Part shown: one piece after another, positions 166-48,868 of the stretch
How the letters are laid out: every line of letters starts with the position of its first letter
How positions within the stretch are numbered: the stretch's first letter is position 1
Assembly (NCBI GenBank): GCA_017936745.1
Contig: JAGBEY010000016.1
Location: 192-64,191, forward strand
Length of the DNA: 64,000 nt
Direction: 5' to 3'
From: Clostridia bacterium
GTDB lineage: Bacteria > Bacillota > Clostridia > UMGS1840
Program-made: the position numbers and the translations under genes
Notes under the pieces: model-generated
The model's input: the letters and a program-made list of their open reading frames with translations, nothing else
Databases searched by the model: none
What the model was told of the DNA's origin: nothing

Positions 166-2439
166 TTGTATGTCACAGAGGCGATAATCAACAGGAGGAA
201 GGTTCCATACACTTTATATGTTAATCCGGTTTGTAAGCTTACTGTCGACGGAGGAACTTATGGACTTAGAACGCGTATTGTTCAAGTGGGTATGGGTACC
301 GACGACAAGAGTTGCAATTATCGCGGTACTGTGATAGCTGACCGTGTGGGTACCATTGAAATCAACGGAGGTTCCTTCTGTGCCTATGACCTTGGCTTTG
401 ATTATGGAATGCCGGGAGATGAATGGGGAACTTACGGTGTCAGTGACAGAGAGCTTACAGCTTTCGGCACTTGCTGTTACAATGGTAGCGCCACGGTTGG
501 TGTAAGTCCTATGAATCTTACCATCAACGGCGGTCTGTTTAATTCTTCAGGATATTCTATTCATCATTTTTTCAGCGCTTTGAGTGAGGCTTACGCCGGC
601 GAAGATGTGATTGAAAAGCTGACCTTCCCCACCATCAACGGCGGTGTGTTTGAAGGTGCAATCGGATATATCGGCAGAAGCGGGGTGGAATGTGCATTCG
701 GTAACCCGATTGCCGAGCTGAAAGAAAGAACACTTGACACAATGATCAGCGAAGACTCTTTTGTTCATATTACCATTGATGACGGCTACCATAACTATAT
801 TCTTAAGCCGGATAATGTAACTTTTGATGAAGCAAACTGCCATGACTTCTGGATGATGGTAATTGGAGAAAACTTAATTAACCTTGAAACAACACCGGCT
901 ACCGACGGACAAACAACATATCTTACCCGCAATACCAGTCAGATTGATCACTTCACAGTAACCTACACCATTCCCGACTATCTCGGCACCAGGATTTATA
1001 TTAATCCTTTTATTTACGTTTTTGAGGATAGGTATTCCGGATACGGGCAGGACTACGTGGAGGTCTACTATGGTAACTATCCCGACCTGACTGTTTCGGT
1101 CCAAGCGGGGATTGAGGTAATCAGCATTGATGACACCCGTTCGGGTATGACTTTCTATAACACCTATGAAATCACAGTCGAAGCGCCTAATCCACCGTCA
1201 ATTGTCACGCAGCCTGCCATGTGCAGAGTAGAACCGGGAGAATGGGCAGAAATGACGGTGAAGGCCAATCACGCCGAATCCTATCAGTGGTATATGATAG
1301 ATGATACCTTTGGGAAAATCCCCTTCGGAGATAATGTATTCACGTCCATGATTGACGGAATTGAAGGGTATCAGTCCGAAACCTTAAGAATTATGATGAA
1401 GGAGCCCTGCAAGATCAGTCTTTACTGTGTCATTACAGGCATAGACGGTACTGAAAAAAAGACATCGACAAGAAATATGTATTTCGGCGCTGCTCCGAGC
1501 GTTCGCGTCTTTAGCGGCGGAGAATATGAAGAGGGCGGCGATGCCACCTTTATCATCTGGGCAGACTACGCGGATCGACTCACCTGGATGGTAGTAGACA
1601 GAGGAAGCGGCAGTGCAAGCTTTTATAACCTCGAAGACTTTGCCGAAGAATCGGGATTCACCTACACAGAGACTCATCAGAAGATGCCTTCGGGAATTTA
1701 TAAAGCAACCGTTACCTTCCATAATGTCACCCAAGCAAGCGTAAATAAAATTTTTGTGGGCTATGAAATGAGCAACGCCATAGACACAACGGAATTCAAT
1801 CCGGAAAATGTGCTTCCGTTTACCCGAAAGGAAATCAGGCCCCAAATCACCAAGGAGCTGGAACCCGCAAGCTGCCTGGATGGCGACAGTCTGACATATA
1901 CCATTCAGGCAATGAATATGACAGATGCGGAATGGAGGTTCGAAAAGCCTGACGAGGACGGAATTGCGATAGCTTATGGCATAGATGAACTGCGTGAAGC
2001 ATTTCCGGAATCCTCGTTCATCCCGTCCTTTGAAACAGACAGCGAAACCGGCGAAAGCACGGCAACCCTTGTCATCGAAAAGGCAAGATATGAGATGTTT
2101 GATTACACCCTTTATGCCTATGCAAGTTCTTCCAGCGGAATCTATCTGGCAGGTTATGCACAGTTGGAAGTAATTCCTGTCAAGGATTTTGAAATTACCG
2201 ACTGTCAGAACTCCAGCAGCTATATCACCGTGTGCTGTCCCGAAGCGGGAGATTACACGCTGTATATTGCAGGCTACGATTCGTTTGGAAAATTGGAAGC
2301 TGTAGAGATTGCACCCTTGCATTTTACCAGAGGAAAAGCAAGCTACAACACACAAAAGCCATTGGCAGATTATCCAGATATCAGGGTAATGCTTTGGGAC
2401 AATCTTATCAGCCCGCTATGTTCTTTATATCAAAAATAA
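166..2439 (+). CDS. Large surface-protein-like ORF with no signal peptide and a TTG start in the track; possibly N-terminally truncated
   Basis: 757-aa ORF. The N-terminal part has recurring xINGGxF / VDGGTY motifs (beta-helix-like repeats), followed by Ig-like segments. There is no signal peptide and no convincing RBS. It begins 66 bp from the divergent polymerase gene. Confidence 0.5.
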   Translation: MYVTEAIINRRKVPYTLYVNPVCKLTVDGGTYGLRTRIVQVGMGTDDKSCNYRGTVIADRVGTIEINGGSFCAYDLGFDYGMPGDEWGTYGVSDRELTAFGTCCYNGSATVGVSPMNLTINGGLFNSSGYSIHHFFSALSEAYAGEDVIEKLTFPTINGGVFEGAIGYIGRSGVECAFGNPIAELKERTLDTMISEDSFVHITIDDGYHNYILKPDNVTFDEANCHDFWMMVIGENLINLETTPATDGQTTYLTRNTSQIDHFTVTYTIPDYLGTRIYINPFIYVFEDRYSGYGQDYVEVYYGNYPDLTVSVQAGIEVISIDDTRSGMTFYNTYEITVEAPNPPSIVTQPAMCRVEPGEWAEMTVKANHAESYQWYMIDDTFGKIPFGDNVFTSMIDGIEGYQSETLRIMMKEPCKISLYCVITGIDGTEKKTSTRNMYFGAAPSVRVFSGGEYEEGGDATFIIWADYADRLTWMVVDRGSGSASFYNLEDFAEESGFTYTETHQKMPSGIYKATVTFHNVTQASVNKIFVGYEMSNAIDTTEFNPENVLPFTRKEIRPQITKELEPASCLDGDSLTYTIQAMNMTDAEWRFEKPDEDGIAIAYGIDELREAFPESSFIPSFETDSETGESTATLVIEKARYEMFDYTLYAYASSSSGIYLAGYAQLEVIPVKDFEITDCQNSSSYITVCCPEAGDYTLYIAGYDSFGKLEAVEIAPLHFTRGKASYNTQKPLADYPDIRVMLWDNLISPLCSLYQK

Positions 2440-2443
2440 TCAG

Positions 2444-3952
2444 GTGATAATGATGAAAATGAAAAAAATTGTAACTGTTTTATTAAGCGTAGTCATGATA
2501 GCATCAATGATTCCTACAGCTGTTTTTGCGACAGATTATATCCAGTCTGTAGTTGTGCTTGGTATTGATGATCCTGTAGACGGTGCACCGTATGACCGTT
2601 TTGCAAGTCTGCCATCAAATGCTACATATACAATTTTCAGCCAGCCGGAATGGTATGACGAAACCGACGAAAGATTCCTGGAAGCAGGCGATTCTTTTGA
2701 AAGTGGACACAGTTACACAGTAAGTGTGTGGCTGGAACCGAATAACGGATATGAGTTTGCCTCTACTACTACAACAACAGATGTAAAGGCATCCATAAAT
2801 GGAAAAACTGCAGAAGCAGGAAAAGCTTATGAATATCAACGATGGGCAATGGTTGTTGTGTCTTATACATTCCCAGCGGTTGAGAAGGCAAAACCGGTTG
2901 GCAGAGTTGAAATAGAAATATCCAAACCAAAGGCAGGTGAAACTGTATCCTACGATGCAAAACTTACAGGTGAGGGCGTTAGACTCATGACTCGTATTCC
3001 TGACCTTAAAGATGTATATAAAAATGCTATTAACGGTATAGAATGGGATGACGAAACCGCAAATCATAATATGAAAAAGGGAGAAACCTTTACGGTCGGT
3101 CACGAATATGGACTCAGCGTATTTATTGAGCCTGAAGCCGGGTACAAGCTTGATAATACAAACAAGGATTATTCTGTCACCATAAACGGTTCAAATGCAT
3201 TACCTATTGACGGATTTGGAGAGGATCGTCGGGGATATTATATCAGTTATGATTGTATAGGTGAGATTGGTGCTGTAAATTTCAACATTGTCGAACCGGA
3301 AGTTGGCTCTACTCCGTTTTTTAAAGGCTATGCGGAAAATGGCAATGTGGATTGGGAGGTAACAGAACTTTCCTATTTTGATAAGAGTACGAGAGAACAT
3401 CTTGAAGCATACGATACATTTGAAGAAGGACACTATTACGAAATTTATTTCCGTATGCAGGCAAAAGACGGATATGATTTTACCAAAGATGAAAATGGTA
3501 ATTTTGACCAAAGCAAAATTACCATAAACGGACACACGCCAAGCGACTCAGGCTATTTCTCCAATGTGTGGAGAACAGGTTTTGTTAAAAGCTGTTATGG
3601 TCCGCTTAAAAAGAATAGCGAGAATCTTCCGCTCACCCTGCGCGATGATGAACTCGTTAATGATATAGTGCAATCTATCTATCTCTATGATCTTGAAAAA
3701 CCCAAAGTGGGAGCCACTCCGGATTATATTACGGTATGGTTTAGTGAATACTATTATCCTGTGATGTCATCTACAGAAGTTGAAAAATGGGGAGTTTGTT
3801 GGAAAAACGTAACTGCCGGAAAAGACCTTGCGGTTGAAGACTCTGTCTTTGAGGAAGGTAATGAGTATGAAGCTCATATCAGAGTTACAACCAACTATAA
3901 AATGAAATCAAACGGAATCAAGGCATGTTTAATTCTAAAAAGAAGGTGCTAA
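2444..3952 (+). CDS. Secreted repeat protein with four to five roughly 100-aa modules
   Basis: Signal peptide MKMKKIVTVLLSVVMIASMIPTAVFA. Recurring module pattern: P(V/K)xGATP ... W.DE ... FE.GH.Y ... GY.F. The likely true start is the ATG at 2450-2459, after AGGTGA. Confidence 0.6.
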   Translation: MIMMKMKKIVTVLLSVVMIASMIPTAVFATDYIQSVVVLGIDDPVDGAPYDRFASLPSNATYTIFSQPEWYDETDERFLEAGDSFESGHSYTVSVWLEPNNGYEFASTTTTTDVKASINGKTAEAGKAYEYQRWAMVVVSYTFPAVEKAKPVGRVEIEISKPKAGETVSYDAKLTGEGVRLMTRIPDLKDVYKNAINGIEWDDETANHNMKKGETFTVGHEYGLSVFIEPEAGYKLDNTNKDYSVTINGSNALPIDGFGEDRRGYYISYDCIGEIGAVNFNIVEPEVGSTPFFKGYAENGNVDWEVTELSYFDKSTREHLEAYDTFEEGHYYEIYFRMQAKDGYDFTKDENGNFDQSKITINGHTPSDSGYFSNVWRTGFVKSCYGPLKKNSENLPLTLRDDELVNDIVQSIYLYDLEKPKVGATPDYITVWFSEYYYPVMSSTEVEKWGVCWKNVTAGKDLAVEDSVFEEGNEYEAHIRVTTNYKMKSNGIKACLILKRRC

Positions 3953-4252: not shown

Positions 4253-5224
4253 TTATTTCTTTTTCCGGTATCTGATACAACCCACAACTCCCAATACCGC
4301 AATCACGCCTACGGCAACTGACAGTGCGGGAATCCACAAGGAAGTGATTGGCGAAGTTTCTCCCGTATTTTTTGCATACAGTTCTTTTTGTACTCCATAC
4401 GGAAGAAACTCATACAAGGTTGCTAAATCCTCCCATTTCATGGTAAAATCGCAACCGGGGAGTCTTCCCATCATCTGATGGTAGTGATCCACCTCGCAAA
4501 ACCGAGATACCGAGGCGAAAGCTGTTTTGGAAAAGCCGTCATACAAGGTGTCCTGCCTGTGTGTTACTGTAATGTAAAGCATATCGTCTTCCCAATCCTC
4601 AGCTCCCATTCTTTTTAAAATGGTATTTTTCACGTCGGTAATCAACACATTGTCGGAAAACTTAAAAAAACGGTCTACATTGATATCATACTCCACACCG
4701 TTTAAGGAAATCGTGACTTTTTCAGCAATCTCACGACTGGTTTCCATATATTCACTTAAAGTGATTTTTCTTCCCACATTCACACGGGCAATTTCTGACA
4801 TTTCATATAAGCCTTCCTCTAAGTACGCTTGAATCCGTTCGGAAAATTCATCGGTAATCTGTAAGACGATTTCCCCATCTGTACGGCTTTTGACCTCATA
4901 GGCATAAACCACATCCCCGGGAAGAAAGCCAAAGAAATATTCTGCTCCCTTTTTAGGAGTATTTTTTGAAAAATAGCAGACCGGATAGGATTGCTCCACC
5001 TGAACCTCCACTTCCCCTTTAATTTTTAAAACAGGAAGCACAGTCACCTCTTTCACATCGGAACGATTTTCTTCTTTGGAGTCTGCAAAATCCACAAGCG
5101 TTCCGATAAAGACTTTCGCATCGTCTTCATAGCTAAAAGCTTCCGGAATATCTCCCGCCAATGCAGGCACACACAATGAAACAAGCATACAAATGATACC
5201 AAGTATTGAAATAATTTTTTTCAT
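4253..5224 (-). CDS. Hypothetical exported protein with a C-terminal membrane anchor
   Basis: N-terminal signal peptide MKKIISILGIICMLVSLCVPALAG. C-terminal TM helix WIPALSVAVGVIAVLGVVGCI followed by RYRKKK. Confidence 0.6.
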   Translation of the reverse strand: MKKIISILGIICMLVSLCVPALAGDIPEAFSYEDDAKVFIGTLVDFADSKEENRSDVKEVTVLPVLKIKGEVEVQVEQSYPVCYFSKNTPKKGAEYFFGFLPGDVVYAYEVKSRTDGEIVLQITDEFSERIQAYLEEGLYEMSEIARVNVGRKITLSEYMETSREIAEKVTISLNGVEYDINVDRFFKFSDNVLITDVKNTILKRMGAEDWEDDMLYITVTHRQDTLYDGFSKTAFASVSRFCEVDHYHQMMGRLPGCDFTMKWEDLATLYEFLPYGVQKELYAKNTGETSPITSLWIPALSVAVGVIAVLGVVGCIRYRKKK

Positions 5225-5244: not shown

Positions 5245-5934
5245 TTATAAAAGAGATTCCAGTTCCCGCAAATCGGAAATTTCGTAAGTAACGGGGATAC
5301 CAAGGGTATTTTCTTCTCCGGTCGGATTATACCAAACAGTATCAATCCCCATATTCAAACCGCCTTGTATATCCGAGGTGAGAGAATCGCCGATGATGAC
5401 TGCCTCTTCTTTGTTAAAGTCCGAAATTTTGGAAAATACAATCTCAAAATAGGCTTTTTCCGGCTTTTGAAATCCGATTTCTTCGGAAATGAAAATGCCG
5501 TCTGCCAATGATTCAAGTCCTGATTTTCTGAGCCTTGGCCACTGCACCTCACGGGTACCGTTGGTGACATAATAAATTTGAAAGCCTTTTTGTTTCAAAC
5601 GAATCAACAGCTTGTCCGCCCCGTCAATTAACTCTGCGATTTTAGAAAGCTCATTACGATAGTAACGGTCAAATGCCACACTGTCTCCCGAAAAACCAAA
5701 TTCCCGGAATAAATCGTCAAATCGTGCCGATAAAAATTTGGACTTCTCGATTTTCCCTTTCTCAAATTCTTCCCAATAGTATTGATTGATGGCTTCATAT
5801 CGGGCACGAATCTGTTCACTGTAGGAAAAGGAAAAATCCTCCAGTGATTTTTTCAGGGCAATTTGTTCAGATTTTTTGAAATCAAGCAGTGTACGGTCTA
5901 CATCAAACAATAAAAAATGTTTATTCAACAGCAA
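5245..5934 (-). CDS. HAD-superfamily hydrolase (subfamily IA, YjjG-like nucleotidase type)
   Basis: The DxDxT motif is present as FDVDRTLLDF. A late GDSLTSDIQGG motif is also present. Confidence 0.8.
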   Translation of the reverse strand: MLLNKHFLLFDVDRTLLDFKKSEQIALKKSLEDFSFSYSEQIRARYEAINQYYWEEFEKGKIEKSKFLSARFDDLFREFGFSGDSVAFDRYYRNELSKIAELIDGADKLLIRLKQKGFQIYYVTNGTREVQWPRLRKSGLESLADGIFISEEIGFQKPEKAYFEIVFSKISDFNKEEAVIIGDSLTSDIQGGLNMGIDTVWYNPTGEENTLGIPVTYEISDLRELESLL

Positions 5935-5969
5935 CCCCTCCGTATCCTATTAAAAACCTTTAATATCTG

Positions 5970-6845
5970 TTATAAAAACAACAATGTACCAGCAAAGCAG
6001 ATGATAATACCTAACACCTGTCTCCCGGAAAGTCTTTCCTGAAACACTAGTGTTCCGGCAAGAGAAGTTAATATCACGGAACCTCCTGTTACCATCGGAA
6101 AGAGCACTGAGGCAGGAACTGTTGATGCACCAGCCAATTGCAATACATAAGAGAGTCCATCTGAAACTGCCGCAAACAGAATGACCCAAATTGCTGTTTT
6201 CATCGGCAGCTTTACAATTTTTTCACCGGGACATCTTTTTCCGATTACAAGCAAGGATATTGAGCACAGAACCACTTTCCAAACCACTACAAGAAAGGCA
6301 TAATCAGAGGATGTAATCAGCTCGCTTGCAGGGCTAATTTGATGCAATTTACTAACGATACTACACAATCCATTTAAAACAAAAACCGCAATACATAATA
6401 AAAGTGGCTTTCTGCCGAGCTTTTTCTCTCCGGTGTTAGAAATAGCAATTGCCGCAACAATCGCTACGAGACCAATGGTGCGCAAGAGAGTTAATTCTTC
6501 GTTTAAGAATAAAACCCCAAAAATGTATGGAAGTACCATACCGCCCGACATAAGGAAAAATGTGTAATGAGCCACATTCCCCATTTCCAGAATTTTAAAT
6601 CCGATAAAAACATATAACATCCCCGTAATGGTAGAAAATGCCGACATCATCACGGAATATGCAGTAAGATTGATACGAAAATTATTCATCACGAAAAACA
6701 TAACGGCGCAAAATATTCCCATCCAGGTGTTATAGGTTAACCCCGCTTTGAGTGTTGTGCCTGCTGTCTTTTGATACTTTTTTTGAAAAACAAAACTGGT
6801 TGCAAGAAAAAAATCTGCAACAACAATCATCAAATATGAATTCAT
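5970..6845 (-). CDS. DMT/EamA-type polytopic transporter
   Basis: 291 aa, about 10 hydrophobic helices, with a two-halves organisation. Confidence 0.6.
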   Translation of the reverse strand: MNSYLMIVVADFFLATSFVFQKKYQKTAGTTLKAGLTYNTWMGIFCAVMFFVMNNFRINLTAYSVMMSAFSTITGMLYVFIGFKILEMGNVAHYTFFLMSGGMVLPYIFGVLFLNEELTLLRTIGLVAIVAAIAISNTGEKKLGRKPLLLCIAVFVLNGLCSIVSKLHQISPASELITSSDYAFLVVVWKVVLCSISLLVIGKRCPGEKIVKLPMKTAIWVILFAAVSDGLSYVLQLAGASTVPASVLFPMVTGGSVILTSLAGTLVFQERLSGRQVLGIIICFAGTLLFL

Positions 6846-9807: not shown

Positions 9808-9972
9808 TGAAATATCAACTTCGTTGATATGAAATAATCCTGACGGATTATGAAATATTTTTCTTTCAGAAAAATGTGAAATAAAATTTGCCTTTTCATA
9901 TTGCGTAGCAATATTTCATACACGGAGTGTATTTCATAGCGAAGCTATTTCACTTGCCAAAGGCAAATTTCA
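9808..9972. repeat. Mirror iteron-hairpin array A (TGAAATA x4, then TATTTCA x4-5)
   Basis: TGAAATA occurs at 9808, 9830, 9851 and 9877. Its reverse complement TATTTCA occurs at 9912, 9930 and 9946, with degenerate copies at 9892 and 9966. Spacers are individual hairpins: 9812-9830 (loop TTC), 9834-9851 (TGAC), 9857-9875 (TTTCA), 9898-9914 (GTA), 9918-9932 (GGA), 9936-9948 (GAA) and 9954-9966 (AAA). Confidence 0.8.
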
Positions 9973-9975
9973 TTG

Positions 9976-10008: not shown

Positions 10009-10084
<76 letters not shown>

Positions 10085-18798: not shown

Positions 18799-19869
18799 TC
18801 AGCTTTCGCTCATCAGAAGTTTTGCACTGCGGTCTGCCGTAATCAAAGCTTCCACAAAGGCATCGATATTTCCATTCATAATATTGGGAAGCTGTTGAAT
18901 AGTCAACCCGATTCTATGGTCGGTCACACGCCCCTGAGGATAGTTGTAGGTACGGATTCGTTCACTTCGGTCGCCGGTACCAACCTGAGATTTTCTTTCT
19001 GCTGCAATTTTGCTGTTCTGCTCCATAATTTTAATATCATAAAGCTTGGAACGCAGCATTTTCATCGCCATATCACGGTTTTTATGCTGGCTTCGTTCGT
19101 TCTGACATGCCACTACAATGCCGGTAGGCTTATGCGTAATACGAATTGCAGACTCCGTTTTATTGACATGCTGACCACCGGCTCCTGATGCACGGTAGGT
19201 ATCAATTTCCAAATCATCGGGGTTGATTTCCACCTCAACATCTTCTACCTCAGGCAACACCGCAACCGTAACGGTGGAGGTGTGGATTCTGCCACCGGAT
19301 TCCGTTTCGGGGATTCTCTGCACACGGTGAACACCGCTTTCAAATTTCAGCTTGGAATATACCCCTTTCCCCTCAATAGAGAAAGAAATTTCCTTATATC
19401 CGCCAATGCCGATTTCTGTTTCAGAAATGACTTCTGTTTTGAAGCGCTGATTCATGGCATACATAGAGTACATACGGTACAAATCGCCGGCAAACAGCGC
19501 AGCCTCGTCACCCCCTGCACCTGCGCGGATTTCCACGATAACGTTTTTCTCGTCATTTTCATCTTTGGGGAGAAGAAGAATTTTAATTTCTTCCATAATC
19601 TGTTCGCTCTGGTCCCGCTTATCATAATATTCTGCTTCCGCCATTTCCCGAAGGTCGTGGTCAGACTCGGTATCCATCATTTCTTTGGCATCTGCCATTT
19701 CCTGCTGTGCCTGCTTATATTCCCGATATTTTTCCACAATAGGCTCCAACTCGGAAATTTCCTTCATCACACTGCGGAACTGGTCCTGATCGCTGATAAT
19801 GGAGGGGTCTGCCGCTTTTTGGTTGAGTTCAATATATTTCTGCTCTAAAAAACCTAATTTTTCAAACAT
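18799..19869 (-). CDS. prfA: Peptide chain release factor 1
   Basis: PET tripeptide context [18 protein letters not shown] motif [12 protein letters not shown]-terminal [15 protein letters not shown]. The stop codon is TGA. Confidence 0.93.
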
Positions 19870-19871
19870 TA

Positions 19872-21024
19872 TTATTTATTTCCTTTCGCTTGCTCTTTCA
19901 GATAAGCATTGATGAACTGATCCAGCTCTCCATCCATCACAGCAGTAACATTTCCTGTTTCGGTTAAGGTTCTGTGATCTTTCACCATACTGTAAGGATG
20001 AAACACATAAGAACGAATCTGACTGCCCCAGCCGATATCCAACTGTTCCCCTTTTAAATCGTCAATTTTATCCTTATGTGCCTGCTGCTGCAGCTCCAGA
20101 AGCTTGGCATACAACATTTTCATCGCGGTATCACGGTTTTTGTGCTGACTCCGTTCGTTCTGACAAGACACAACAATTCCCGTGGGAATATGTGTGATAC
20201 GGATGGCGGATTCGGTTTTATTGATATGCTGACCGCCTGCTCCGGATGCACGATAGGTATCCACCTTTAAATCCTCCGGATTGATATCAATTTGAATATC
20301 ATCAGGAAGCTCGGGCATTACTTCTAAGGAGGCAAAAGAGGTATGACGTCTGCCTGAGGAATCGAAAGGCGAAATCCGCACCAGACGGTGCACTCCCTTC
20401 TCGGCTTTTAAGTAGCCATAGGCATTCACACCGCTGACAAGCAGTGTGACACTCTTAATGCCAGCCTCGTCTCCATCTAAATAATCAAGCACTTCCGTTT
20501 TATAGCCTTTCTTTTCTGCCCAACGAAGATACATTCTGTAAAGCATCTGCACCCAGTCCTGTGCCTCAGTTCCGCCTGCACCGGAATGGAGGGAAATAAT
20601 CGCATTATTTCCGTCATATTCTCCCGAAAGGAGAGTTTCCAAAAGCATTTCCTCCAGCTTGGAATTGAGTTCCTTTTCCATAAAAAGAGCTTCCTCCAGC
20701 ATAGATTCCGCTTCCTGTTCATCCTCAGCCAACTCAATCATCGCCAGAATATCTTCATAACTGCTCTCTAAAGCTTGAAAGCTCTGCAATTTATCTTTTA
20801 AATGCTTGAGCTTTTGCAATACCTTTTGAGAATTTTCCAAATCCTCCCAAAAGGTAGGCTCTGAAGATTGACGGTCCAACTTCGAAATTTCGCTTTCTAA
20901 TTTTGCGACATTAAAGTGAATCCCTCAATTCGTTAATTTGTTCTTTGGAATTTGTTAAACGAAGCTTTAATTCTTCAAATTCTAACAAATCTATCACATC
21001 CTTTTTCTGTTGAATTTCATTCAT
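19872..21024 (-). CDS. prfB: Peptide chain release factor 2, requiring a programmed +1 frameshift at 20911-20916
   Basis: The frame-0 leader ...[19 protein letters not shown] ends at TAA (20913-20911). The +1 frame continues [24 protein letters not shown]... with the SPF motif ([14 protein letters not shown]) and GGQ. The start is uncertain: an ATG at 21024, or an in-frame TTG about 12 codons downstream with a better SD. Confidence 0.88.
20910..20926 (-). promoter_or_regulatory. prfB recoding site: SD-like AGGGA, 4 nt, then CTT TAA T
   Basis: The minus strand reads TTG AGG GAT TCA CTT TAA TGT. It is collinear with the E. coli AGGGGG-TAT-CTT-TGA-C site, but the stop is TAA and the next base is T. 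Confidence 0.8.
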
Positions 21025-21028
21025 TCTG

Positions 21029-23767
21029 TTACGGTCTGCAGCATTTTTTATATTTTTTTCCGCTTCCGCAGGGACATGGGTCATTCGGACCAACTTTTTC
21101 GCCGGAACGAACCGGTGTTTTTTTCACACTTCCATCTCCGTGCGTTGCCATCTGAGGCATTGCCACCTGACGGCGTTCTACCTGCTTCTGGACTGATACA
21201 TTAAGCACTGTTTTTGCGGTTTCGTCAGAAATGCTCTGAATCATCGCTTCAAACATATCATAGCCCTCGAATTTATATTCCATAACCGGGTCATGCTGAC
21301 CGTAAGCACGCAGATTGATGCCGTTTTTCAACTGGTCCATATCATCAATATGGTCCATCCAATGGCTGTCAACCACACGGAGCAGAACTACCCGTTCCAC
21401 TTCACGAATCGCATCTCCCAGCTCTTCCTCTTTGGCTTCATATTTTTCCAGTGCCATATCGGTAATAATATTCAACAGGCGGTCTTTTGTAACCTCCTCC
21501 AAATCCAGTTCCTCAGCGGAAAACGGATTTTCAGGAGTGGTATAGTACGCATTCACGGCATCGGCTAATCCTTTTAAGTTCCAATCATCGGGATACTCAC
21601 TGCCGCCACAATACTGTTCTACAGTTGAAGAAACGCTGTCGCGAATCATTTTTAAAATGGTATCACGAATGCTTTCTCCGTTTAACACCTGCTGACGCTG
21701 AGAATAAATAATTTCTCTTTGCTGATTCATAACATCGTCAAACTGAAGCACATGTTTACGGATGCCGAAGTTTCTGCCCTCAACCCGCTTTTGTGCACTT
21801 TCAATGGCCTTGGTGAGCATATTATGCTCAATCGGTTCATCCTCCGAAAGCCCTAAGGTATCCACCACGGCACGAACCCGTTCAGAACCGAACAGCTTCA
21901 TCAGCTCATCCTCTAAAGAAAGGAAAAACTTGGTGTAGCCCGGGTCACCCTGACGGCCTGCACGACCACGGAGCTGATTGTCAATTCGTCTGGATTCGTG
22001 ACGCTCTGTACCGATGATACACAAACCGCCTGCATTAACAACTGCTTCTTTTTCTTCCTTTAATTCTTCCGAATATTTTTTGAGAGCCGCGGTATATTCT
22101 TCTCTTGCTTTTAAAATTTCCTCATTATCAGTATGGGCAAAGCCGGTTGCCTCGGAAATAATGCGTTCCTCATAGCCTGCTTTTACCAAATCGGTTCTTG
22201 CTAAATATTCCGCATTTCCGCCCAGCATAATGTCAGTACCACGCCCTGCCATATTGGTGGCGATGGTAACTGCATTCTTTTTCCCTGCCTGAGCGATAAT
22301 CAGCGCTTCTTTATCGTGATTCTTTGCATTCAACACCTCGTGTTTTACGCCACGGCGTTTTAACAAAGAGGATAACGCTTCGGATTTTTCAATAGAAACC
22401 GTACCCACCAAAATAGGCTGACCGGTGGCATGGCGTTTTACAATTTCTTCAATGACTGCTTTGTACTTTCCTGCCTCGGTTTTATATACGGAGTCTGCCG
22501 CATCTTCTCTTAAGAGCGGTTTATTGGTGGGAATTTCAATACAGTCTAATTTATAAATTTCCTGAAATTCTTCTTCCTCGGTTTTAGCAGTACCGGTCAT
22601 ACCGGAAAGCTTTTCATAAAGACGGAAATAATTTTGGAAGGTGATGGTTGCCAGTGTTTTAGATTCCCGTTCCACTGTTACCCCTTCTTTTGCTTCAATC
22701 GCCTGATGAAGTCCTTCGGAATATCTTCTTCCGAACATCAAACGGCCGGTAAACTCGTCAACAATAATTATTTCGCCGTCTTTTACCACATAATCGCGGT
22801 CTACTCTCATTAAACCGTTCGCACGAAGCGCCTGATTGATGTGATGAACCAGAGTTAAGTTATCCGGGTCGGATAAATTTTCTACATTGAAATGCTGTTC
22901 CGCTTTCCAGACACCCTGTGCGGTAAGGTTGGCAGTTTTTGCTTTTTCATCAACGATATAATCGGCATCGCCCTCGTCTATATGAACTTTGGTGTCCTCA
23001 TCAATAATCGTTTTTCGTTTCAATCCTTTAACGAAACGGTCAGCATACTGATAAATATCGGTGGATTTATCTCCCGCACCGGAAATAATCAGCGGCGTTC
23101 TCGCCTCGTCAATCAGGATACTGTCCACCTCGTCCACAATGGCAAAATAGTGACCTCTTTGCACCATCTGCTCCTTGTAGATTACCATATTGTCTCGAAG
23201 ATAGTCAAAACCAAATTCGTTATTGGTACCATAGGTAATGTCACAAGCATAGGATTTGTGACGGTCTTTTGGGTCAACGGCGTGAATGACAAGCCCAACA
23301 GTTAATCCTAAAAACTGGTATACCTTTCCCATCCATTCACTGTCACGTTTTGCCAGATAATCGTTTACGGTAACAATATGAACGCCCCGTTTCGTCAATG
23401 CATTCAAATATGCAGGCAAGGTGGCAACCAGGGTTTTTCCTTCCCCGGTTTTCATTTCTGCAATTCTGCCCTGATGAAGCACAATACCACCGATAATCTG
23501 CACAGGATAATGCTTTAATCCAATCACACGCCAGGATGCTTCACGAACGGTTGCAAAAGCTTCGGGCAGAATATCATCCAAGGTTTCTCCCGCTTGCAGT
23601 CTGGAAATAAATTCAGGCGTTTTTGCTTTCAACTGGTCATCGGTCAATTTGCTGTACTGTTCATCGTAAGAAAGCACCTTCTCCACCAGGGGACGAATGC
23701 GTTTAATCTCCCGCTCGGAGTAAGAGCCGATGATTTTTTCTATCAAAGCTGTAAACATAAAAATCAC
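21029..23767 (-). CDS. secA: Preprotein translocase ATPase
   Basis: [20 protein letters not shown] Walker A. DEAD-like [20 protein letters not shown]-terminal zinc finger [13 protein letters not shown]. Confidence 0.95.
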
Positions 23768-23876: not shown

Positions 23877-25142
23877 TTATATGTAATTTTTGTGTATTTT
23901 CAAGGAATTTTCTTTAGAGTCTTTTTTCTCCTCTGTTCCAATTTCACAAAGAAGCTCTAAAAACCTTTCCTCCGTAATCCGATTCACATTGTAAATCACC
24001 GTAATTCCCATATCCGATGCCCTATCCAGAAAGCTTTTACGTTTGGTGGGAGAATTGCTTAGCTCTGCAGTAATCAGCACTTTTTTTGCATATTCCCCGC
24101 CATAATGCTCCGCTACGGTATGAAGCTCATACAAGGCCTCTTTCAGCACCTCACCGTGTTTACAGGAAATAAATATCGGAATGGCATTTTTCGTTACCAT
24201 CAAATCAATTTCATTTCTCGTTCCGCTGTAGCAGCGAGGAATCATTTTGCCATCCCAATCTGCAAGCACTCCCATCCGCATATCTCCAAATAAGCCGGGA
24301 TGTGCCTTAGACAGCTCGTTTAACAGCATATAGCTGTAGATTTCCAATATATTCCCTGCTTTGGACATACACTGATGCACCTGCTCGTTTTTATATTGGA
24401 AAAACAGCTTCCCGTTTTCTTCCTTGTACCCCAGAATCAACCCGGCATCGGAAAGCTGGTCAAAATAATTATAGTCAGTCAGTTTTTTATATTGTGTTTC
24501 TGAAATTCCCGAAAGATCTGCATACACTTTTAATTCCGGTGTCACCCGTGCGCAGTTTAAAAGCCCCTCCAAGGCAATGGCAAACTGATTCCAAAGCTTT
24601 GGCTTCTGTTTACTGATTGCAAACAGACTACGGATTTCCTTACAGAACGAGGGAGTCAGTTGTTGAGGTGAGAGATAATTTTGGGGAGAAATCACTTCCC
24701 CTCCGTTTAACACCACACTCTGACGGACCGTGATGATTGCCGGCGTGGGAATGGGGATATGCTGTGCATTTTTTATACGAAGCATCTTCCCGGTAGACAC
24801 ATCAAACCGAATCAGGGGAAGATTATGACAATACGCCGCTTCTCCCAATACCGTAAGCACCATTTCTCTGCCTCCGGTAATATCAATGCAGACATCCTGA
24901 TTCATAGATAAAACCCGTTCCATCTTTGTTAAGATGTCACTGTAGGAGTCAATTTTTACGGAAATGTATTCCAATTTTACTGTTTGCTTTCTCATACGAA
25001 AAAAACGGTCCAGTGCATCCCTCCGGTCCTGATTCATCACTTCCGCGTCTCCCAGAAATATAATTTTTTCCGGCAGACAGCTGATTCCTGCAATCACATT
25101 GGTCAGCTGACAGGTATCAAATAATTCCACTAATGTTTTCAT
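23877..25142 (-). CDS. Card1/Can2-like protein: N-terminal CARF-like domain plus C-terminal PD-(D/E)xK nuclease (DUF1887 type)
   Basis: The N-terminal Rossmann-like part has the IDITGG motif. The C-terminal part reads KAGNILEIYSYMLL ... NEIDLMVTKNAIPIFISCKHG, an E/D...xK restriction-endonuclease-fold pattern. Start set at ATG 25142 after GGAGAAG. Confidence 0.6.
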   Translation of the reverse strand: MKTLVELFDTCQLTNVIAGISCLPEKIIFLGDAEVMNQDRRDALDRFFRMRKQTVKLEYISVKIDSYSDILTKMERVLSMNQDVCIDITGGREMVLTVLGEAAYCHNLPLIRFDVSTGKMLRIKNAQHIPIPTPAIITVRQSVVLNGGEVISPQNYLSPQQLTPSFCKEIRSLFAISKQKPKLWNQFAIALEGLLNCARVTPELKVYADLSGISETQYKKLTDYNYFDQLSDAGLILGYKEENGKLFFQYKNEQVHQCMSKAGNILEIYSYMLLNELSKAHPGLFGDMRMGVLADWDGKMIPRCYSGTRNEIDLMVTKNAIPIFISCKHGEVLKEALYELHTVAEHYGGEYAKKVLITAELSNSPTKRKSFLDRASDMGITVIYNVNRITEERFLELLCEIGTEEKKDSKENSLKIHKNYI

Positions 25143-25193
25143 ATTCTTCTCCAAAATTGATTTCCTTTTCAATCACATATTTTATTTCCAAAA

Positions 25194-25234
25194 TACGACA
25201 TTTTTATTATATAATAAATCAGAAAAAAGTGCAA
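25194..25234 (-). promoter_or_regulatory. Candidate promoter of the Card1-like gene, with a 6/7 0A-like box at the start site
   Basis: The minus strand reads TTGCAC (25234-25229), 17 nt, TATAAT (25211-25206), then AAAAA and TGTCGTA (25200-25194; TGTCGAA is the Spo0A box consensus). Confidence 0.4.
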
Positions 25235-25367
25235 TAGTTGTAATGCAAATGTCAAATGAAAAAGACAAAAAGACTGCACACTTTGATTGTGATACAGCCT
25301 TTTTGCCTTGGGAAAAGAATTATATAGAATGGATACAGGCATTGCTATGGGGATGTTCCCCGCTTTG

Positions 25368-26168
25368 TTATGCAGATAACCGAAGCAGAATATTATCGGC
25401 TATCATAGCTAAAAATTCCGAATTGGTGGGCTTTCCTCTGGAGGAAAGAACGGTGCATCCAAACACCTTGGCAATATTATCAGCATCGCCTCTGGTCCAC
25501 GCCACTTCAATGGCATGACGGATGGCACGTTCCACCCGGCTGGGCTTGGAATCAAATTCCTTGGCAGTCATCGGATATAGCTCTTTGGTTACACTGTGAA
25601 GCAGTTTTCTGTTTTCCAGCACCCGTAAAATTGCATAGCGGAGATATTCATAGCCTTTGATATGTGCCGGCATACCCAGCTCGTGAAAAATATTGGTAAC
25701 CATCTGCTCCAGCATAGGATTTTCCTTGGAGGTTGCAATATTGGCAATTTTACCATTCGTATTCAGCTCGTTGTTGAGCTTATTTTCTTGCTTTCCGCTT
25801 TCCGAAACTGCTTTAATCTGCAAAATGGTAGACGGGATATCAAAGGGCTTCATCACAAAATAATCGGCTCCCATTTCCACCACTAATTTTTCGATGGCGG
25901 GAATTTTAATATCCATCATAAACACGATGGTCATATCCTCCCGAAGCAGTGCTTCCTTTTGCATACTGTCTAACAGCCAGATGCCGTCACCGTTTGGCAT
26001 TGCAATATCGGTAAGCACAATGTCCGGCTGATGGGAACGGATTAACTCCAGTGCTTCCTTGCCCTCTTTCGCCTGATACACTTCGCCAAAGTAGCTGTCT
26101 GCAGCCAGGCAGGTTTCCAGTTCTTCCAATAAGGTTTCGTTATCTTCTATCACTATAATCTTTTTCAT
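25368..26168 (-). CDS. spo0A: Sporulation master response regulator Spo0A
   Basis: A receiver domain (DIVLTDIAMPNGDG) plus the diagnostic Spo0A C-terminal domain: PAHIKGYEYLRYAI, SRVERAIRHAIEVAWTRG and GKPTNSEFLAMIAD. Confidence 0.93.
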   Translation of the reverse strand: MKKIIVIEDNETLLEELETCLAADSYFGEVYQAKEGKEALELIRSHQPDIVLTDIAMPNGDGIWLLDSMQKEALLREDMTIVFMMDIKIPAIEKLVVEMGADYFVMKPFDIPSTILQIKAVSESGKQENKLNNELNTNGKIANIATSKENPMLEQMVTNIFHELGMPAHIKGYEYLRYAILRVLENRKLLHSVTKELYPMTAKEFDSKPSRVERAIRHAIEVAWTRGDADNIAKVFGCTVLSSRGKPTNSEFLAMIADNILLRLSA

Positions 26169-26355: not shown

Positions 26356-26379
26356 CACGACATTCTTCGACATCCGACA
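26356..26379 (-). promoter_or_regulatory. Cluster of three 0A-type boxes upstream of spo0A
   Basis: The plus strand reads cACGACAttcTTCGACAtcCGACA. There is one perfect TGTCGAA on the gene strand (26372-26366), flanked by TGTCGTG and TGTCGGA, about 190-210 bp upstream of the start codon. Confidence 0.55.
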
Positions 26380-29796: not shown

Positions 29797-29921
29797 ATTG
29801 TTTCTCCTTTTCATACATTTATATATAATATTCCCAAAATGTATTGCTATTTTGCACATAATATGTTAAAATGAAATTTAATGGCTTTGTAAGCTATCCA
29901 TCAAACAGAAAGGAAGAACCA

Positions 29922-30899
29922 ATGAAGTATTTCAACAGTGTTTCTATCCCTTGTTACAAGGGAATCAGACAACTGAACATTGATAAATTTTCTTCCGTAA
30001 ATATAATCACCGGCCCTAACGGAAGTGGAAAAACCACATTGTTGCACAGCCTGGATATTCTTTCCAATCCTGCGGATTTTTCTCATTATACTTCCGTTTC
30101 AGGGCAAGACCTTATCTCGTTTTCCAATTCTTTTGACAAACGGGAACCCAATCCCCGTACTAAAATTTCCGGCACAATACTGAATCAAACATATACGGTG
30201 GAAATTTCCTCTCCACTGCCGCTAACAAAGGATGCATTTCTCGGCACGCACAGTTTCACATATCCGAAAAACGGTGAGCAAAAGCAAGTAACCACTTCCA
30301 CACGATACTGTTACGATGAGTCTCCCGCTCCCGTGAAAAATCCGTTGCTTCGCTTCCGCTCAGTTTCCGCCAACAGCAGGCCGCCTTGTCTGAAAAAGAT
30401 TAAAGAGGATGAAGCAATCAGCCGGAAGGTAATTTCCTTTCTGTCCCTGTATGATGAAGAAATTGTGGGATTTCACACGGATGATTTTCAAGAATTTTAT
30501 ATCTGCCATCAAACATACGGAGCTCTTCCGGCAACCTTTTTCAGTGATGGCATCCAATTCTTTTTGAAAATTGCAGAGGCATTTTCAAACTTTTCGGACG
30601 GTGTGTTAGCCATCGACGGGTTTGAATCCCAATTTGCGAAAAACACGATACCGGAGGTTGTAAATTTTGTTTACCAGCTTGCAAAAGAACGGCAAATCCA
30701 GTTATTTCTCACGACGCAAAGTGCAGAGCTAATAGACGAATGGCTGGATTTACTTCACTTTTACAACGAACTTGACAAGCTATGCATAATCCGTCTGCGT
30801 TCCGACAAAAACTCCACAACCTGTCAATTGACAGAGGGAAAACGGGCTTATGAGCTGCGAATGGAGAGGCAGACCGATTTTCGTGATGAAAATAAATAA
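29922..30899 (+). CDS. Stand-alone ABC/SMC-like AAA ATPase (AAA_21-type) with atypical catalytic positions
   Basis: Walker A ITGPNGSGKTTLL. Signature-like FSDGIQFF. Walker B region VLAIDGFES (DG instead of DE). TTQS where THS is usual. ATG 29922 follows AAAGGAAG. Confidence 0.65.
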   Translation: MKYFNSVSIPCYKGIRQLNIDKFSSVNIITGPNGSGKTTLLHSLDILSNPADFSHYTSVSGQDLISFSNSFDKREPNPRTKISGTILNQTYTVEISSPLPLTKDAFLGTHSFTYPKNGEQKQVTTSTRYCYDESPAPVKNPLLRFRSVSANSRPPCLKKIKEDEAISRKVISFLSLYDEEIVGFHTDDFQEFYICHQTYGALPATFFSDGIQFFLKIAEAFSNFSDGVLAIDGFESQFAKNTIPEVVNFVYQLAKERQIQLFLTTQSAELIDEWLDLLHFYNELDKLCIIRLRSDKNSTTCQLTEGKRAYELRMERQTDFRDENK

Positions 30900-42094: not shown

Positions 42095-44665
42095 CTATTC
42101 TCCTTTCGGGATGTTTTCCAGTAAATCACGGATGCTTTGTTCTGCTTCTTCCACTTCCTTCAAAAAATGTTCTGCAGATATCCTCAGTGCCCCGTGCCCT
42201 AATATAATAAGCTGTTCTAAATTGTCCGAAGTTGCTACCCGTACCCGGTGATGCTTGCCAAGCTGCTTGGTCACTTTTTCAATATACATATCAGCCGTTT
42301 CTGCCTCTTTGGTATACACCACGCTGATATTATGAACTTTTTCCACCTCACCGGGATTATTTTTCACCTTATAGGCATCAAACACCAGTATCAATTCACA
42401 TTGAGAAAAGCCCTGATAATTGCACAACCGGTCAATGAGATGCTCTCTGGCAATGGCAGGACTTTCTGCCACCAGCTTTTTCAAATCCTCCCAGGCAAAA
42501 ATGATGTTGTAACCGTCTACCAAAAGATATTCAGGGCCTTCGGGAATGGGCTTCGCCGGTTTTGGTTTATACTCTTTTTCCACCTTTTTTGCACGGGGAC
42601 GAAATGCATCATACTCCCGACGGCGGATAGGCCCGTAGGTTCTCTCAAATACTGCCAGCAATTCTTCATCGTCATACACACGTTCCAGGTATCGTCTGGC
42701 TTGTTGGACAGGTTTTTTTGGTATTTCTTCTTTGGAAAAAGCACTCTCCAAGTGCATATATTTGGGAACATCGTTCCACTTAACCGTAAAGCCTGCTCCG
42801 TGAGAACAAAAAACAGAATCAGGCGTATTATCCAAATCCTGCTCAGGCTGATAGCCCATCTCAGCAATGACACTTTCCGCTTCCTCACAGGGAGAATATC
42901 CCGCTACCCGACAGCTTAACCGCCCCAGCCCGTGGGTATATCGAACAACCTCCATCTGATAGTCCCGCATTTTGGATACGGGAGCAGTTCCCGTAAGCAC
43001 CGTATTTTCTCCCTGCATTCCTTTTTGTTCAAAGGTGCCTCCCATCTGCCCGATGTCGGTCATCGCTCTGCCCACGGCATCTGAGGGAAGCTCCAACTCA
43101 AACTCATACCAAGGCTCTAACAGCTGACTTTTTGCACACATCAACCCCTGACGAACGGCACGATAGGTTGCCTGGCGGAAGTCACCGCCCTCTGTATGCT
43201 TTATGTGTGCTTTCCCTGCAATCAGAGAAATTTTTATATCAGTGATAGGTGAACCGGTCAACACACCAAGATGATTTTTTTCCGCTAAATGGGTTAAAAT
43301 CAGCCGTTGCCAGTTTTTATCCAGCTTGTCCTCAGGAAGGTTGGTGGTATACACCATCCCGCTTCCTTGGGGCAGAGGCTCTAACAACAAATGTACCTCG
43401 GCATAATGGCGCAAGGGTTCATAATGCCCTACCCCTTCTACCGCCTCCAAAATGGTTTCCTTGTAGGAGATACTGCCGTGACTGAAAGAAATTTCCATCC
43501 CAAAGCGCTCTTTGGCAATTCGTTTTAAAACCTCCAGCTGCACTTCCCCCATCAGCTGAACATGAATCTCTTTTAGTTGTTCATTCCAATATAAATGCAG
43601 ACACGGATCTTCCGCTTCCAGCTGACGAAGCTTTCCCAAAGCAACCGAAACGTCGGTGCTGTCACAAAGCTCCACCTTATAATTCAAAACCGGCTCAGTA
43701 TACAATTCTGTGCCGTCTGGCTCTACACCGAAGCCGTCCCCCACCCGGGAATTGGAAAGACCGGTAACGGCACAGACGGTTCCGGCATACACTTCCTCTG
43801 CTGTTTCGTAGCCTGCACCGGAATAAATCCGAATCTGATTGATTTTTTCACTCCATACTTCCGTCTCGTTCCTGATTTTTCGAAGCAAGGATTTCACTTT
43901 CAGGCTACCACCCGTAATTTTCAGGTAGGTCAGGCGGTTGCCCTGCTCATCCTCCGCAATTTTAAATGCTTTTGCACCAAATTTCTGCAAACGCTCCGGT
44001 TCTTTTGCATAGGTTAAGATTCCATTCACCAATGTATCAATTCCCACAGTTTTTAATGCAGAACCAAAAAAGCAAGGATATAGCTTTCTTTTTTTGATTG
44101 CCCGGGAAATACTTGGTTCGCAAACCGAACCATTTTCCAAATATTCCTCCATCAAGCTTTCGTCACAAAGTGCAATTTCTTCCATATCGGGAGACGCGGA
44201 AAAATCCACACAGGAAGTATCCAGTTTTTCTTTCAGCTGTTGCAATACTGTTTCTTTATCCGCACCCTCCAAATCCATTTTATTCACAAACAAAAAGGTG
44301 GGAATGTTGTACTGATGAAGTAGTTTCCACAAGGTGATTGTATGGCTTTGCACTCCGTCTGTCCCGCTGATGACCAAAATTGCGTAATCCAGCACACTGA
44401 GTGTTCGCTCCATTTCAGTGGAAAAATCAACATGACCGGGCGTGTCCAGCAAGGTGATAATCGTGTCGTCATATTTTAAGATGGCTTGCTTGGAAAAAAT
44501 GGTAATACCACGATCTTTTTCGATAGAATGGGTATCCAAAAAAGCGTCTTTATGGTCAACACGCCCCAATTTCCGGATTTGCCCCGCATGATATAACAGC
44601 CCCTCGGATAAGGTGGTTTTTCCCGAATCCACATGAGCTAAAATGCCAAATACCAATCTTTGCAT
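42095..44665 (-). CDS. TetM/EF-G-family translational GTPase fused to a C-terminal YacP/Rae1-like NYN nuclease domain
   Basis: G motifs AHVDSGKT, DTPGH and NKMD, with collinearity to TetM/TetO over about 640 aa. A K/R/E-rich linker follows. The last 145 aa (42098-42532) read EYLLVDGYNIIF...LVFDAYKV...VVYTKEAETADMYIE...VATSDNLEQLIILGHGA, which are the YacP NYN hallmarks. Confidence 0.8.
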   Translation of the reverse strand: MQRLVFGILAHVDSGKTTLSEGLLYHAGQIRKLGRVDHKDAFLDTHSIEKDRGITIFSKQAILKYDDTIITLLDTPGHVDFSTEMERTLSVLDYAILVISGTDGVQSHTITLWKLLHQYNIPTFLFVNKMDLEGADKETVLQQLKEKLDTSCVDFSASPDMEEIALCDESLMEEYLENGSVCEPSISRAIKKRKLYPCFFGSALKTVGIDTLVNGILTYAKEPERLQKFGAKAFKIAEDEQGNRLTYLKITGGSLKVKSLLRKIRNETEVWSEKINQIRIYSGAGYETAEEVYAGTVCAVTGLSNSRVGDGFGVEPDGTELYTEPVLNYKVELCDSTDVSVALGKLRQLEAEDPCLHLYWNEQLKEIHVQLMGEVQLEVLKRIAKERFGMEISFSHGSISYKETILEAVEGVGHYEPLRHYAEVHLLLEPLPQGSGMVYTTNLPEDKLDKNWQRLILTHLAEKNHLGVLTGSPITDIKISLIAGKAHIKHTEGGDFRQATYRAVRQGLMCAKSQLLEPWYEFELELPSDAVGRAMTDIGQMGGTFEQKGMQGENTVLTGTAPVSKMRDYQMEVVRYTHGLGRLSCRVAGYSPCEEAESVIAEMGYQPEQDLDNTPDSVFCSHGAGFTVKWNDVPKYMHLESAFSKEEIPKKPVQQARRYLERVYDDEELLAVFERTYGPIRRREYDAFRPRAKKVEKEYKPKPAKPIPEGPEYLLVDGYNIIFAWEDLKKLVAESPAIAREHLIDRLCNYQGFSQCELILVFDAYKVKNNPGEVEKVHNISVVYTKEAETADMYIEKVTKQLGKHHRVRVATSDNLEQLIILGHGALRISAEHFLKEVEEAEQSIRDLLENIPKGE

Positions 44666-48358: not shown

Positions 48359-48868
48359 TTAAATGCAACTTGCTTTGTCAATATAATCTTCCAAATTTTG
48401 ACTATACGGAAAGCATCGCATAAAAGAACTTACTAATTCTTTATCTTCGCTTAAAATCAAAGTCAATGAACTGTCCCAAGGCACAATTTCTATCTTTGAT
48501 AAAGGATGTTGAAGTGTTAGCGGTTTGTTCCAGAATCCTGTATATCCATTTGCATAAGGCAAATCATATTTTAAAATATCAGCTAATTCAACACTTTTAT
48601 CAAATCCTGACAACACAGCCCATATCCATTGAAAATCTTCCTGATTGACCATTTCAGTTAATTCTTCACCTGATAACCAACAATATTCTTTGTCTAATAA
48701 TTCTTTTATTTTTTGATTATTGGGATAACATTCACAATCTGTTATTAACCAGTTGTATTCTTTTTGCTTATTACCAATCGCATCAAATATTTTTTTCAAA
48801 TATGTATAATACTTTTCGCCTTTTTCGTTAATTGCTCCATAAACCACATAATCACTTCCTTTCGACAT
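48359..48868 (-). CDS. Orphan small cytoplasmic protein (cassette 1)
   Basis: The ORF reads MSKGSDYVVYGAINEKGEKYY...NWLITDCECYP...FQWIWAVLSGF... By analogy with cassette 2, the true start may be the GTG at 48847, 7 nt after AAAGGAAG. Confidence 0.55.
   Translation of the reverse strand: MSKGSDYVVYGAINEKGEKYYTYLKKIFDAIGNKQKEYNWLITDCECYPNNQKIKELLDKEYCWLSGEELTEMVNQEDFQWIWAVLSGFDKSVELADILKYDLPYANGYTGFWNKPLTLQHPLSKIEIVPWDSSLTLILSEDKELVSSFMRCFPYSQNLEDYIDKASCI

Follow-up and report, generated by a model that had tools for sequence, protein, structure and literature searches.

The closest described systems to the gene considered here are the Can2/Card1 proteins, ancillary nucleases of type III CRISPR systems that are switched on by cyclic tetra-adenylate (cA4), belong to the CARF4 (DUF1887) group and are represented in the PDB by SthCan2 (7BDV), TsuCard1 (6WXW), TbrCan2 (8Q3Z) and DysCan2 (8BAO). 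It is almost only in this role, as cA4-activated accessories of type III CRISPR, that CARF nucleases have been studied. Cdn1 (8Z4I/9U49), a DUF1887-family nuclease encoded in a type III-B locus, is activated by cA4 and by cyclic hexa-adenylate (cA6), which shows that CARF4 pockets can accept ligands besides cA4 (PMC12825302), and VC1899 (1XMX), an orphan DUF1887 protein of Vibrio cholerae, has no CRISPR association and is unresponsive to cA4 (PMC7969007). The 64-kb stretch of the Clostridia bacterium contig JAGBEY010000016.1 analysed here (the window) encodes a 421-aa Card1/Can2-like CARF–PD-(D/E)xK protein, hereafter the query, whose gene (23877..25142, minus strand) has spo0A and secA as its neighbours.

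It should be noted that the family is on record as DUF1887 and CARF4, that NCBI assigns the query to it and that orphan members such as VC1899 are known, and the finding is a useful lead, not a surprise. What is new is an uncharacterised Card1/Can2 variant, restricted to Clostridia among the carriers seen, whose catalytic motif has changed along with its ligand pocket; it is referred to below as the SCK subclade, after the motif at its nuclease site. The reading favoured here is that the query would be an accessory, fast-turning-over, ligand-gated defence nuclease supplied with its messenger in trans by a Cas10 encoded elsewhere, a reading for which our confidence is evenly balanced between acceptance and doubt. 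Knowledge of the activating signal and of the ability to cut would show either the reach of Cas10 signalling in trans or the rewiring of CARF proteins to other signals.

Family, fold and a clade-wide change in the active site

By fold and architecture the query is a member of the Card1/Can2 (CARF4) family, and this assignment is secure to the point of near-certainty because PADLOC profiles, Pfam annotation of homologues, profile comparison with the PDB, an AlphaFold2 model and Foldseek searches concur; an earlier note on this DNA, which had proposed a CARF nuclease of the Card1/Can2 (DUF1887) type, is borne out. The PADLOC CARF4--CARF_PDDEXK models match the protein end to end (residues 1-398, E 3e-30), and the CARF_PDDEXK models match its C-terminal domain (residues 245-390); the CARF4 label itself rests on the names of the PADLOC models and on papers citing the CARF classification. 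The sole Pfam match on the query is CARF_Card1 (PF23400, residues 24-92), at 20.8 bits and thus under the cut-off of 24.6, while most homologues carry PF09002 (Card1_endonuc/DUF1887), and the identical protein bears the NCBI name 'DUF1887 family protein [Clostridia bacterium]'. A profile of 49 homologues compared with the PDB matched the CARF domain of Can2 7BDV (3.7e-10) and VC1899 1XMX (1.7e-6), with weaker matches to DysCan2 8BAO and Cdn1.

The AlphaFold2 monomer model, built from the homologue alignment, has a pLDDT of 92.3 and a pTM of 0.89. Its top Foldseek matches in the PDB are VC1899, SthCan2, Cdn1, DysCan2, Card1, TbrCan2 and Can1 (E 1e-21 to 3e-10), in alignments that span both domains; over the chains listed, the TM-scores (by query or by target length) are 0.33-0.82. 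VC1899 is the best match (E 1.8e-21; TM 0.70 by query and 0.77 by target length), Cdn1 has the same fold (E 6.9e-20), and identity between the query and the Can2/Card1 structures is about 11-17% in these alignments. The Rossmann-like CARF domain takes up approximately residues 1-150 (24693..25142, minus strand), as indicated by PF23400, the Can2 profile match and the alternating strands and helices of the model; the restriction-endonuclease-like PD-(D/E)xK domain takes up approximately residues 256-405 (23928..24377, minus strand), as indicated by PADLOC, by PF09002 in homologues and by the structural matches. The query has the two-domain architecture and fold of Can2/Card1 and shares with them an xTGG motif in the CARF domain, an E-helix, and N-E-x-D and x-C-K strands that are equally spaced; it differs from them in that its clade has Ser for the Glu of ExK, an extra DWDG motif and changed cA4 contacts.

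The motifs quoted in the earlier note, CIDITGG (85-91), GNILEIYSYMLL (263-274), NEIDLMV (310-316) and IFISCKHG (323-330), were all confirmed in the 421-aa product, as were the open reading frame (ORF) itself and its position between spo0A and secA. Within the nuclease domain, E267 of the GNILE helix (24342..24344, minus strand) is an acidic residue invariant in 49/49 and 79/79 sequences, and the alignment places it on GGWFE in Can2 and on GEWLE in VC1899. The invariant N310-E311-I-D313 (24204..24215, minus strand), a putative catalytic 'ExD' strand, aligns with NELDV of Can2 and VC1899 and corresponds to E276/D278 of SthCan2, where the double mutant E276A/D278A is inactive (PMC7969007). Between these lies D295-W-D-G298 (24249..24260, minus strand), a clade-specific motif with no counterpart in Can2 or VC1899: among the 49 homologues W296 never varies, conservation of D295, D297 and G298 is 90% or higher, and a motif of the DWDG type occurs in 225/263 sequences.

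Of the complete catalytic signature E-x-D … E-x-K only the first half (E311-x-D313) is present; at the second half stands S326-C-K328 (24159..24167, minus strand), with Ser at the position of the Glu in Can2, VC1899, DysCan2 and Card1, at the same D+13 spacing, where the PDB relatives read VIECK, IIECK and FVECK. This departure, which the earlier note had remarked on as S-x-K in place of E-x-K, is real and is a property of the whole clade. Its Ser is invariant in 49/49 aligned homologues, and SCK is found in 259/259 family members from two protein searches; the other 4 of the 263 sequences retrieved are misfits of the motif pattern and not counter-examples to SCK. An exhaustive search of representative proteins gave 3006 matches at E<=1e-3, of which 820 reach E<=1e-30, and the top 150 are all SCK proteins. 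Residues D87, G90, G91, E267, W296, N310, E311, D313, S326, C327 and K328 are invariant both in the 49 and in the 79 sequences. Judged by these motifs, the query belongs to a large subclade defined by ExD…S-C-K, DWDG and the CARF motif D-x-T-G-G-x-[E/D], and the invariance of CARF and nuclease residues alike suggests that function has been maintained.

Dead forms of Card1/Can2 have been obtained by mutating the Glu of ExK (TsuCan2 E302A/K304A). The replacement of this Glu by S326, fixed in all 259 sequences, would suit a dead, exapted protein that soaks up the ligand, regulates or binds DNA, like the nuclease-like domain of Can1, and the homologue P0111 has at residues 194-246 a match to the HTH_56 domain, between its CARF and nuclease domains. 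Such loss of activity is nevertheless quite improbable in our view, as E267, E311, D313 and K328 are invariant and are joined by the new invariant Trp and the DxDG acidic motif, a pattern unlike that of a site in decay, and as clade members hold effector positions in type III operons. Active PD-(D/E)XK enzymes with a relocated Glu, such as Cfr10I (PD-XXK-E) and EcoO109I (EPD-XXK), are moreover documented (PMC3424549), and the loss of Glu from the third strand is therefore not proof of inactivity. These enzymes, together with Bse634I of the Cfr10I type, likewise lack the third-strand carboxylate and are active by way of an acidic residue elsewhere, and the EPD-XXK arrangement of EcoO109I has a counterpart in the query, where E311 precedes D313; they differ from it in being sequence-specific restriction enzymes without a CARF domain. 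Candidate replacements for the missing Glu are E311, E267, and D295 or D297. It appears moderately likely that the query is competent as a nuclease.

CRISPR linkage, ligand pocket and the source of the messenger

A pattern scan over one genome per species found relatives in 493 species genomes, and the subclade represented by the query is accordingly present in at least 493, mostly of gut and rumen Clostridia and usually far from cas genes. The carriers listed are all Clostridia (Oscillospiraceae, Acutalibacteraceae, Lachnospiraceae, Coprococcus intestinihominis and others), for the most part metagenome-assembled genomes from gut or rumen. A phage origin was considered and set aside, there being no relative in the viral contigs of IMG/VR. 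Neighbourhoods were surveyed for the best 80 loci, over up to ±10 kb each (loci are numbered L below), and no CRISPR-like array was found in them. Clustering of their 1058 neighbour ORFs yielded no conserved operon partner: the commonest cluster occurs in 15/80 loci, and the top clusters are ABC transporters and AraC regulators. Defence models, for IetA or subtilase, are matched by a few of the immediate neighbours.

In three loci the CARF nuclease gene belongs to a genuine type III CRISPR operon and is co-oriented with the cas genes. The type III-D locus L063, of Coprococcus intestinihominis, reads CARF nuclease, Cas6, Csx20, Csx1/Csm6, Cas10d, Cas7/5 fusion, Cas7, Csx19 and Cas7. The type III-B loci L033 and L053 (L033:1485-11202; L053:10046-19649) each start with an SCK-clade CARF nuclease, followed by an unannotated ORF, Cas10b, Cmr3, Cmr4, (Cmr5), Cmr6, CorA and Cas6. 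In their pocket and active-site residues the three proteins agree with the orphans, and the SCK variant is for this reason compatible with the role of a type III ancillary effector. In a neighbour-joining tree the CRISPR-linked members are nested at two separate places; linkage to CRISPR is labile within the clade. This trio offers an experimental entry point, two of its members being in CorA loci without a recognisable SAM-AMP-degrading enzyme.

The query itself is an orphan locally, within the 64 kb. TRF, Rfam and a k-mer repeat scan detected no CRISPR array in the window, PADLOC found none of the Cas10, Csm/Cmr or CD-NTase families among its 55 proteins at E<2.8e-7 (the matches obtained were to generic ATPase-type models), and the Pfam calls along about 72 kb of the source scaffold are those of housekeeping genes. 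These scans agree with the earlier note, which had seen no cas10, other cas gene, CRISPR array or CBASS cyclase in the 64 kb. CD-NTase, SMODS and other cyclase families were found neither beside the query nor among the 25 most frequent families per library for 131 immediate neighbours of homologues.

The ATPase-type PADLOC matches among the window proteins are to AbiLi (5e-21), AriA (1.5e-14), PDC-M38A (8e-45) and mad3 (2e-37). A likely source of such matches is an AAA_15/AAA_21 ATPase (29871-30899, plus strand), which is conserved in the sister species.

The ligand pocket departs from that of the cA4-activated enzymes. The CARF signature D87-I-T89-G90-G91 (24870..24884, minus strand), in which D87, G90 and G91 are invariant in the clade, belongs to a clade consensus D-L-T-G-G-[K/D/E]-[E/D], as against N-V-T-G-G-T-K in Can2 and Cdn1; the Lys conserved in Cdn1 is among the differences. 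Can1 and Can2 alike contact cA4 through four residues, S19, T42, K99 and Y118 in SthCan2 (PMC7969007). In a sequence-based alignment anchored on the NVI and TGG motifs they fall on D9, D32, E93 and R112 of the query, so that 0/4 are conserved and E93 occupies the place of the cA4-binding Lys99. Because these contacts are not conserved, the messenger need not be cA4. The earlier note had said that such proteins are switched on by cA4 in type III systems, which holds for Can2/Card1 and needs qualifying for the query. VC1899, unresponsive to cA4, has D9, D34, R96 and V115 at the same positions (PMC7969007). It differs from the query in keeping E-C-K (IIECK), in its CARF motif, which is SCG rather than TGG, and in its phylum, and the query's clade, for its part, still has CRISPR-operonic members.

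In the mechanism favoured here, a homodimer would bind a nucleotide second messenger across the CARF dimer, and binding would open or activate the nuclease cleft for non-specific degradation of nucleic acid at a metal-dependent active site that E267, E311, D313 and K328 could build. The messenger would most likely come from a type III CRISPR Cas10 encoded elsewhere in the genome and acting in trans. Dimer, ligand gating, nuclease activity and the supply by Cas10 are all inferred by homology with Can2/Card1. The ligand source, which the earlier note had left as unknown, can be qualified to this extent: it is uncertain, but the product of a Cas10 in trans is the leading candidate because type III-B/CorA or type III-D systems share an operon with three clade members that have the same pocket residues. 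Several observations weigh against this picture, namely the lack of any Cas10, cyclase or array within the 64 kb or the about 72 kb of scaffold, the lack of type III genes related to those of L033 and L063 within about ±10 kb in 77/80 loci, the loss of the Can1/Can2 cA4 contacts in favour of an acidic pocket (D9, D32, E93) resembling that of the cA4-unresponsive VC1899, and the absence of the ExK Glu, the target of inactivating mutations in Card1/Can2.

Some of the same observations would suit a stand-alone orphan like VC1899, whose CARF domain binds some other cellular or phage small molecule, or none, and which would be an autonomous nuclease or defence sensor. The 77 of 80 loci, and the window, without nearby type III cas genes fit such a protein. 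So do the acidic D9, D32 and E93, with their parallel in D9 and D34 of VC1899 (PMC7969007), and the place of VC1899 as top structural neighbour. About ten loci, moreover, adjoin RyR-domain proteins and six an AAA–AAA–M41 protease. This explanation is to be taken seriously but is rather unlikely: the CRISPR-operonic members carry the same pocket residues, which makes the pocket compatible with a Cas10 product, a shared ligand is suggested by how strongly the CARF motif is conserved, and VC1899 keeps the E-C-K that the clade does not.

It is also conceivable that the SCK subclade is a Card1/Can2 offshoot re-tuned to a Cas10 product other than a cyclic oligoadenylate (cOA), e.g., SAM-AMP, and acts either as a second effector activated by SAM-AMP or as the signal-degrading partner for which CorA systems otherwise have NrN, DEDD or SAM-AMP lyase, a speculation to which only a small probability can be given. 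The many orphans, the query included, would on this reading be trans-acting or independently wired sensors of a SAM-AMP-type ligand. CorA effectors are activated by SAM-AMP and are reportedly almost always paired with NrN, DEDD or SAM-AMP lyase (PMC10600005; PMC11229360). In L033 and L053 the SCK member opens the type III-B operon, CorA lies near its far end, and the ORFs tested in these two loci showed no recognisable domain of the NrN, DEDD or SAM-AMP-lyase kind; the surroundings of L053 include ORFs of 318 and 341 aa which, like the ORF between the CARF nuclease and Cas10, have no Pfam match. A small ORF beside the CorA loci was considered as a SAM lyase and rejected, being judged HPr-like by eye from its sequence. 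A pocket with invariant acidic residues along its walls and with Glu for the phosphate-binding Lys would be expected to repel cA4 and could accommodate SAM-AMP with its cationic groups (sulfonium and amino). Against SAM-AMP stands the Csx1/Csm6-type CARF-HEPN effector of L063, which suggests ordinary cOA signalling there.

The RyR-domain proteins mentioned above are small (PF02026, E 1e-32) and stand beside or near the homologue in about 10/80 loci (L014, L016, L020, L021, L029, L038, L042, L044, L081 and L087; e.g., L014:9692-9967 and L087:3300-5873, 5875-6159), some of which add a protein of about 850 aa without a Pfam match and with a C-terminal motif that is RyR-like by eye. The orientation of these neighbours differs between loci and hints at a functional link. 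The protease is a protein of about 1170 aa with AAA_2, AAA and Peptidase_M41 (FtsH-like) domains, encoded directly upstream of the homologue at L063:1-807, L080:2237-5731, L081:6435-9932, L084:6594-9983, L087:6389-9895 and L089:6591-9983, the first of these being the type III-D locus of Coprococcus intestinihominis.

Domain fusions of the SCK CARF nuclease also occur: P0010 (= L015:9998-12097; 699 aa) has a C-terminal metallo-beta-lactamase domain (PF00753, 4e-22), and P0208 (833 aa) has TPR/Sel1 repeats. At L035:1253-1660, about 8 kb from a full-length homologue, a second short ORF with NExD…SCK may be a fragment or a duplicate.

The spo0A–secA slot and transcription of the gene

The ORF runs from an ATG at 25142 to a stop codon at 23877-23879 on the minus strand, and a GGAG ribosome-binding site is read at 25149..25152 (minus strand), 6 nt 5' of the ATG. 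An alternative TTG start at 25172 would lengthen the product by 10 residues to 431 aa; the ATG is preferred because homologues begin with MKTL, their N-termini reading MKTL(I/V)ELFD. A protein of identical sequence is present on 9 contigs from several samples. On one side the gene is flanked by spo0A (25368-26168; PF00072 + PF08769, Response_reg + Spo0A_C) and on the other by secA (21029-23767), with a glutamate dehydrogenase gene (gdh) further upstream and two release-factor genes downstream of secA.

The order gdh, spo0A, CARF nuclease, secA, prf is shared with four other species-level genomes (L011-L013 and L026). Across these syntenic loci amino-acid identity to the window is 97% for gdh, 85-87% for secA and 75-77% for spo0A; for the CARF nuclease it is 64% in L011-L013 and 42% in L026. 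At the DNA level only about 100 nt around the catalytic motifs of the CARF nuclease still align between L026 and the window. The slot in L026 (L026:8046-14095) holds the 42%-identical allele and an inserted unrelated LUD-domain gene between flanking genes that are 77-97% identical, and in the tree this allele groups with a '40%' subclade near the CRISPR-linked L033/L053 pair and not with the query. The spo0A–secA slot thus resembles a variable hotspot, and its pattern suggests that alleles have been replaced, or have diverged very fast, at a fixed position between core genes. This is how accessory defence genes typically behave, and it is at odds with a housekeeping or sporulation role. When metagenomes were scanned with Spo0A for slots with and without the gene, no more than three close relatives were recovered, their contigs being short and lacking this synteny.

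A hairpin with a U-rich tail at 25262..25309 (minus strand; RNA fold -24.8 kcal/mol, z -7.3) is the likely intrinsic terminator of spo0A, and its equivalent in L013 folds at -28 kcal/mol. With so strong a U-tailed hairpin between the genes, co-transcription with spo0A is unlikely, and the CARF-nuclease gene therefore needs a promoter of its own. A putative one, at 25206..25234 (minus strand), consists of TTGCAC (-35, 3/6; 25234-25229), a 17-nt spacer and TATAAT (-10, 6/6; 25211-25206); a consensus scan did not list it because the -35 fits at only 3/6 positions. Both hexamers are invariant in four alignable species, so that the earlier note was probably right in giving the gene its own promoter.

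The same note had seen a hint of developmental control in TGTCGTA (25194..25200, minus strand), a 6/7 match to the Spo0A box that lies 5 nt downstream of the -10 and is putative only. The idea of a sporulation-linked gene under Spo0A control could draw on this box, on the perfect TGTCGAA at the homologous site in L011 and on the adjacency of the CARF nuclease to spo0A in five species-level genomes. It is unsupported all the same and highly unlikely to be correct: 6/7 matches are at or below chance in the window (153 found vs 196 expected), and the box positions vary more among relatives than the adjacent promoter bases, the hexamers being invariant. The relatives other than L011 read TGTTGAA or TGTCGA-, each non-L011 sequence deviating at a different position of the box. 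Beyond the promoter, 75/79 other clade loci are not beside spo0A, and in L026 the slot is filled by the divergent allele and the LUD-domain gene. Better candidates for 0A sites, as far as their sequence tells, are two pairs of perfect TGTCGAA with 10 bp spacing at 48861-48877 and 49699-49715 (both minus strand), near two small genes whose function is unassigned or which match DUF2691, and a back-to-back TGTCGAA and TGTCGGA upstream of spo0A (26366-26379, minus strand).

Further observations in the window

The two release-factor genes adjoin one another and encode PCRF/RF-1 proteins of 356 and 335 aa (18799-19869 and 19872-20879, both minus strand); they are kept 3' of secA in relatives, at 94-96% and 88% identity. 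Near the scaffold end lie three ORFs without Pfam matches, at 166-2439 (plus strand), 2444-3952 (plus strand) and 4253-5224 (minus strand), coding for 757, 502 and 323 aa, the 757-aa one having no PADLOC match either. At 42095-44665 (minus strand) an unusual fusion is encoded, a protein of 856 aa in which EF-G-like GTPase domains are followed at the C-terminus by a domain of the NYN_YacP nuclease type. Finally, a Gut-1 RNA (RF01706, 56.4 bits) at 9908-9975 (minus strand) lies directly beside a tRNA gene at 10012-10084.

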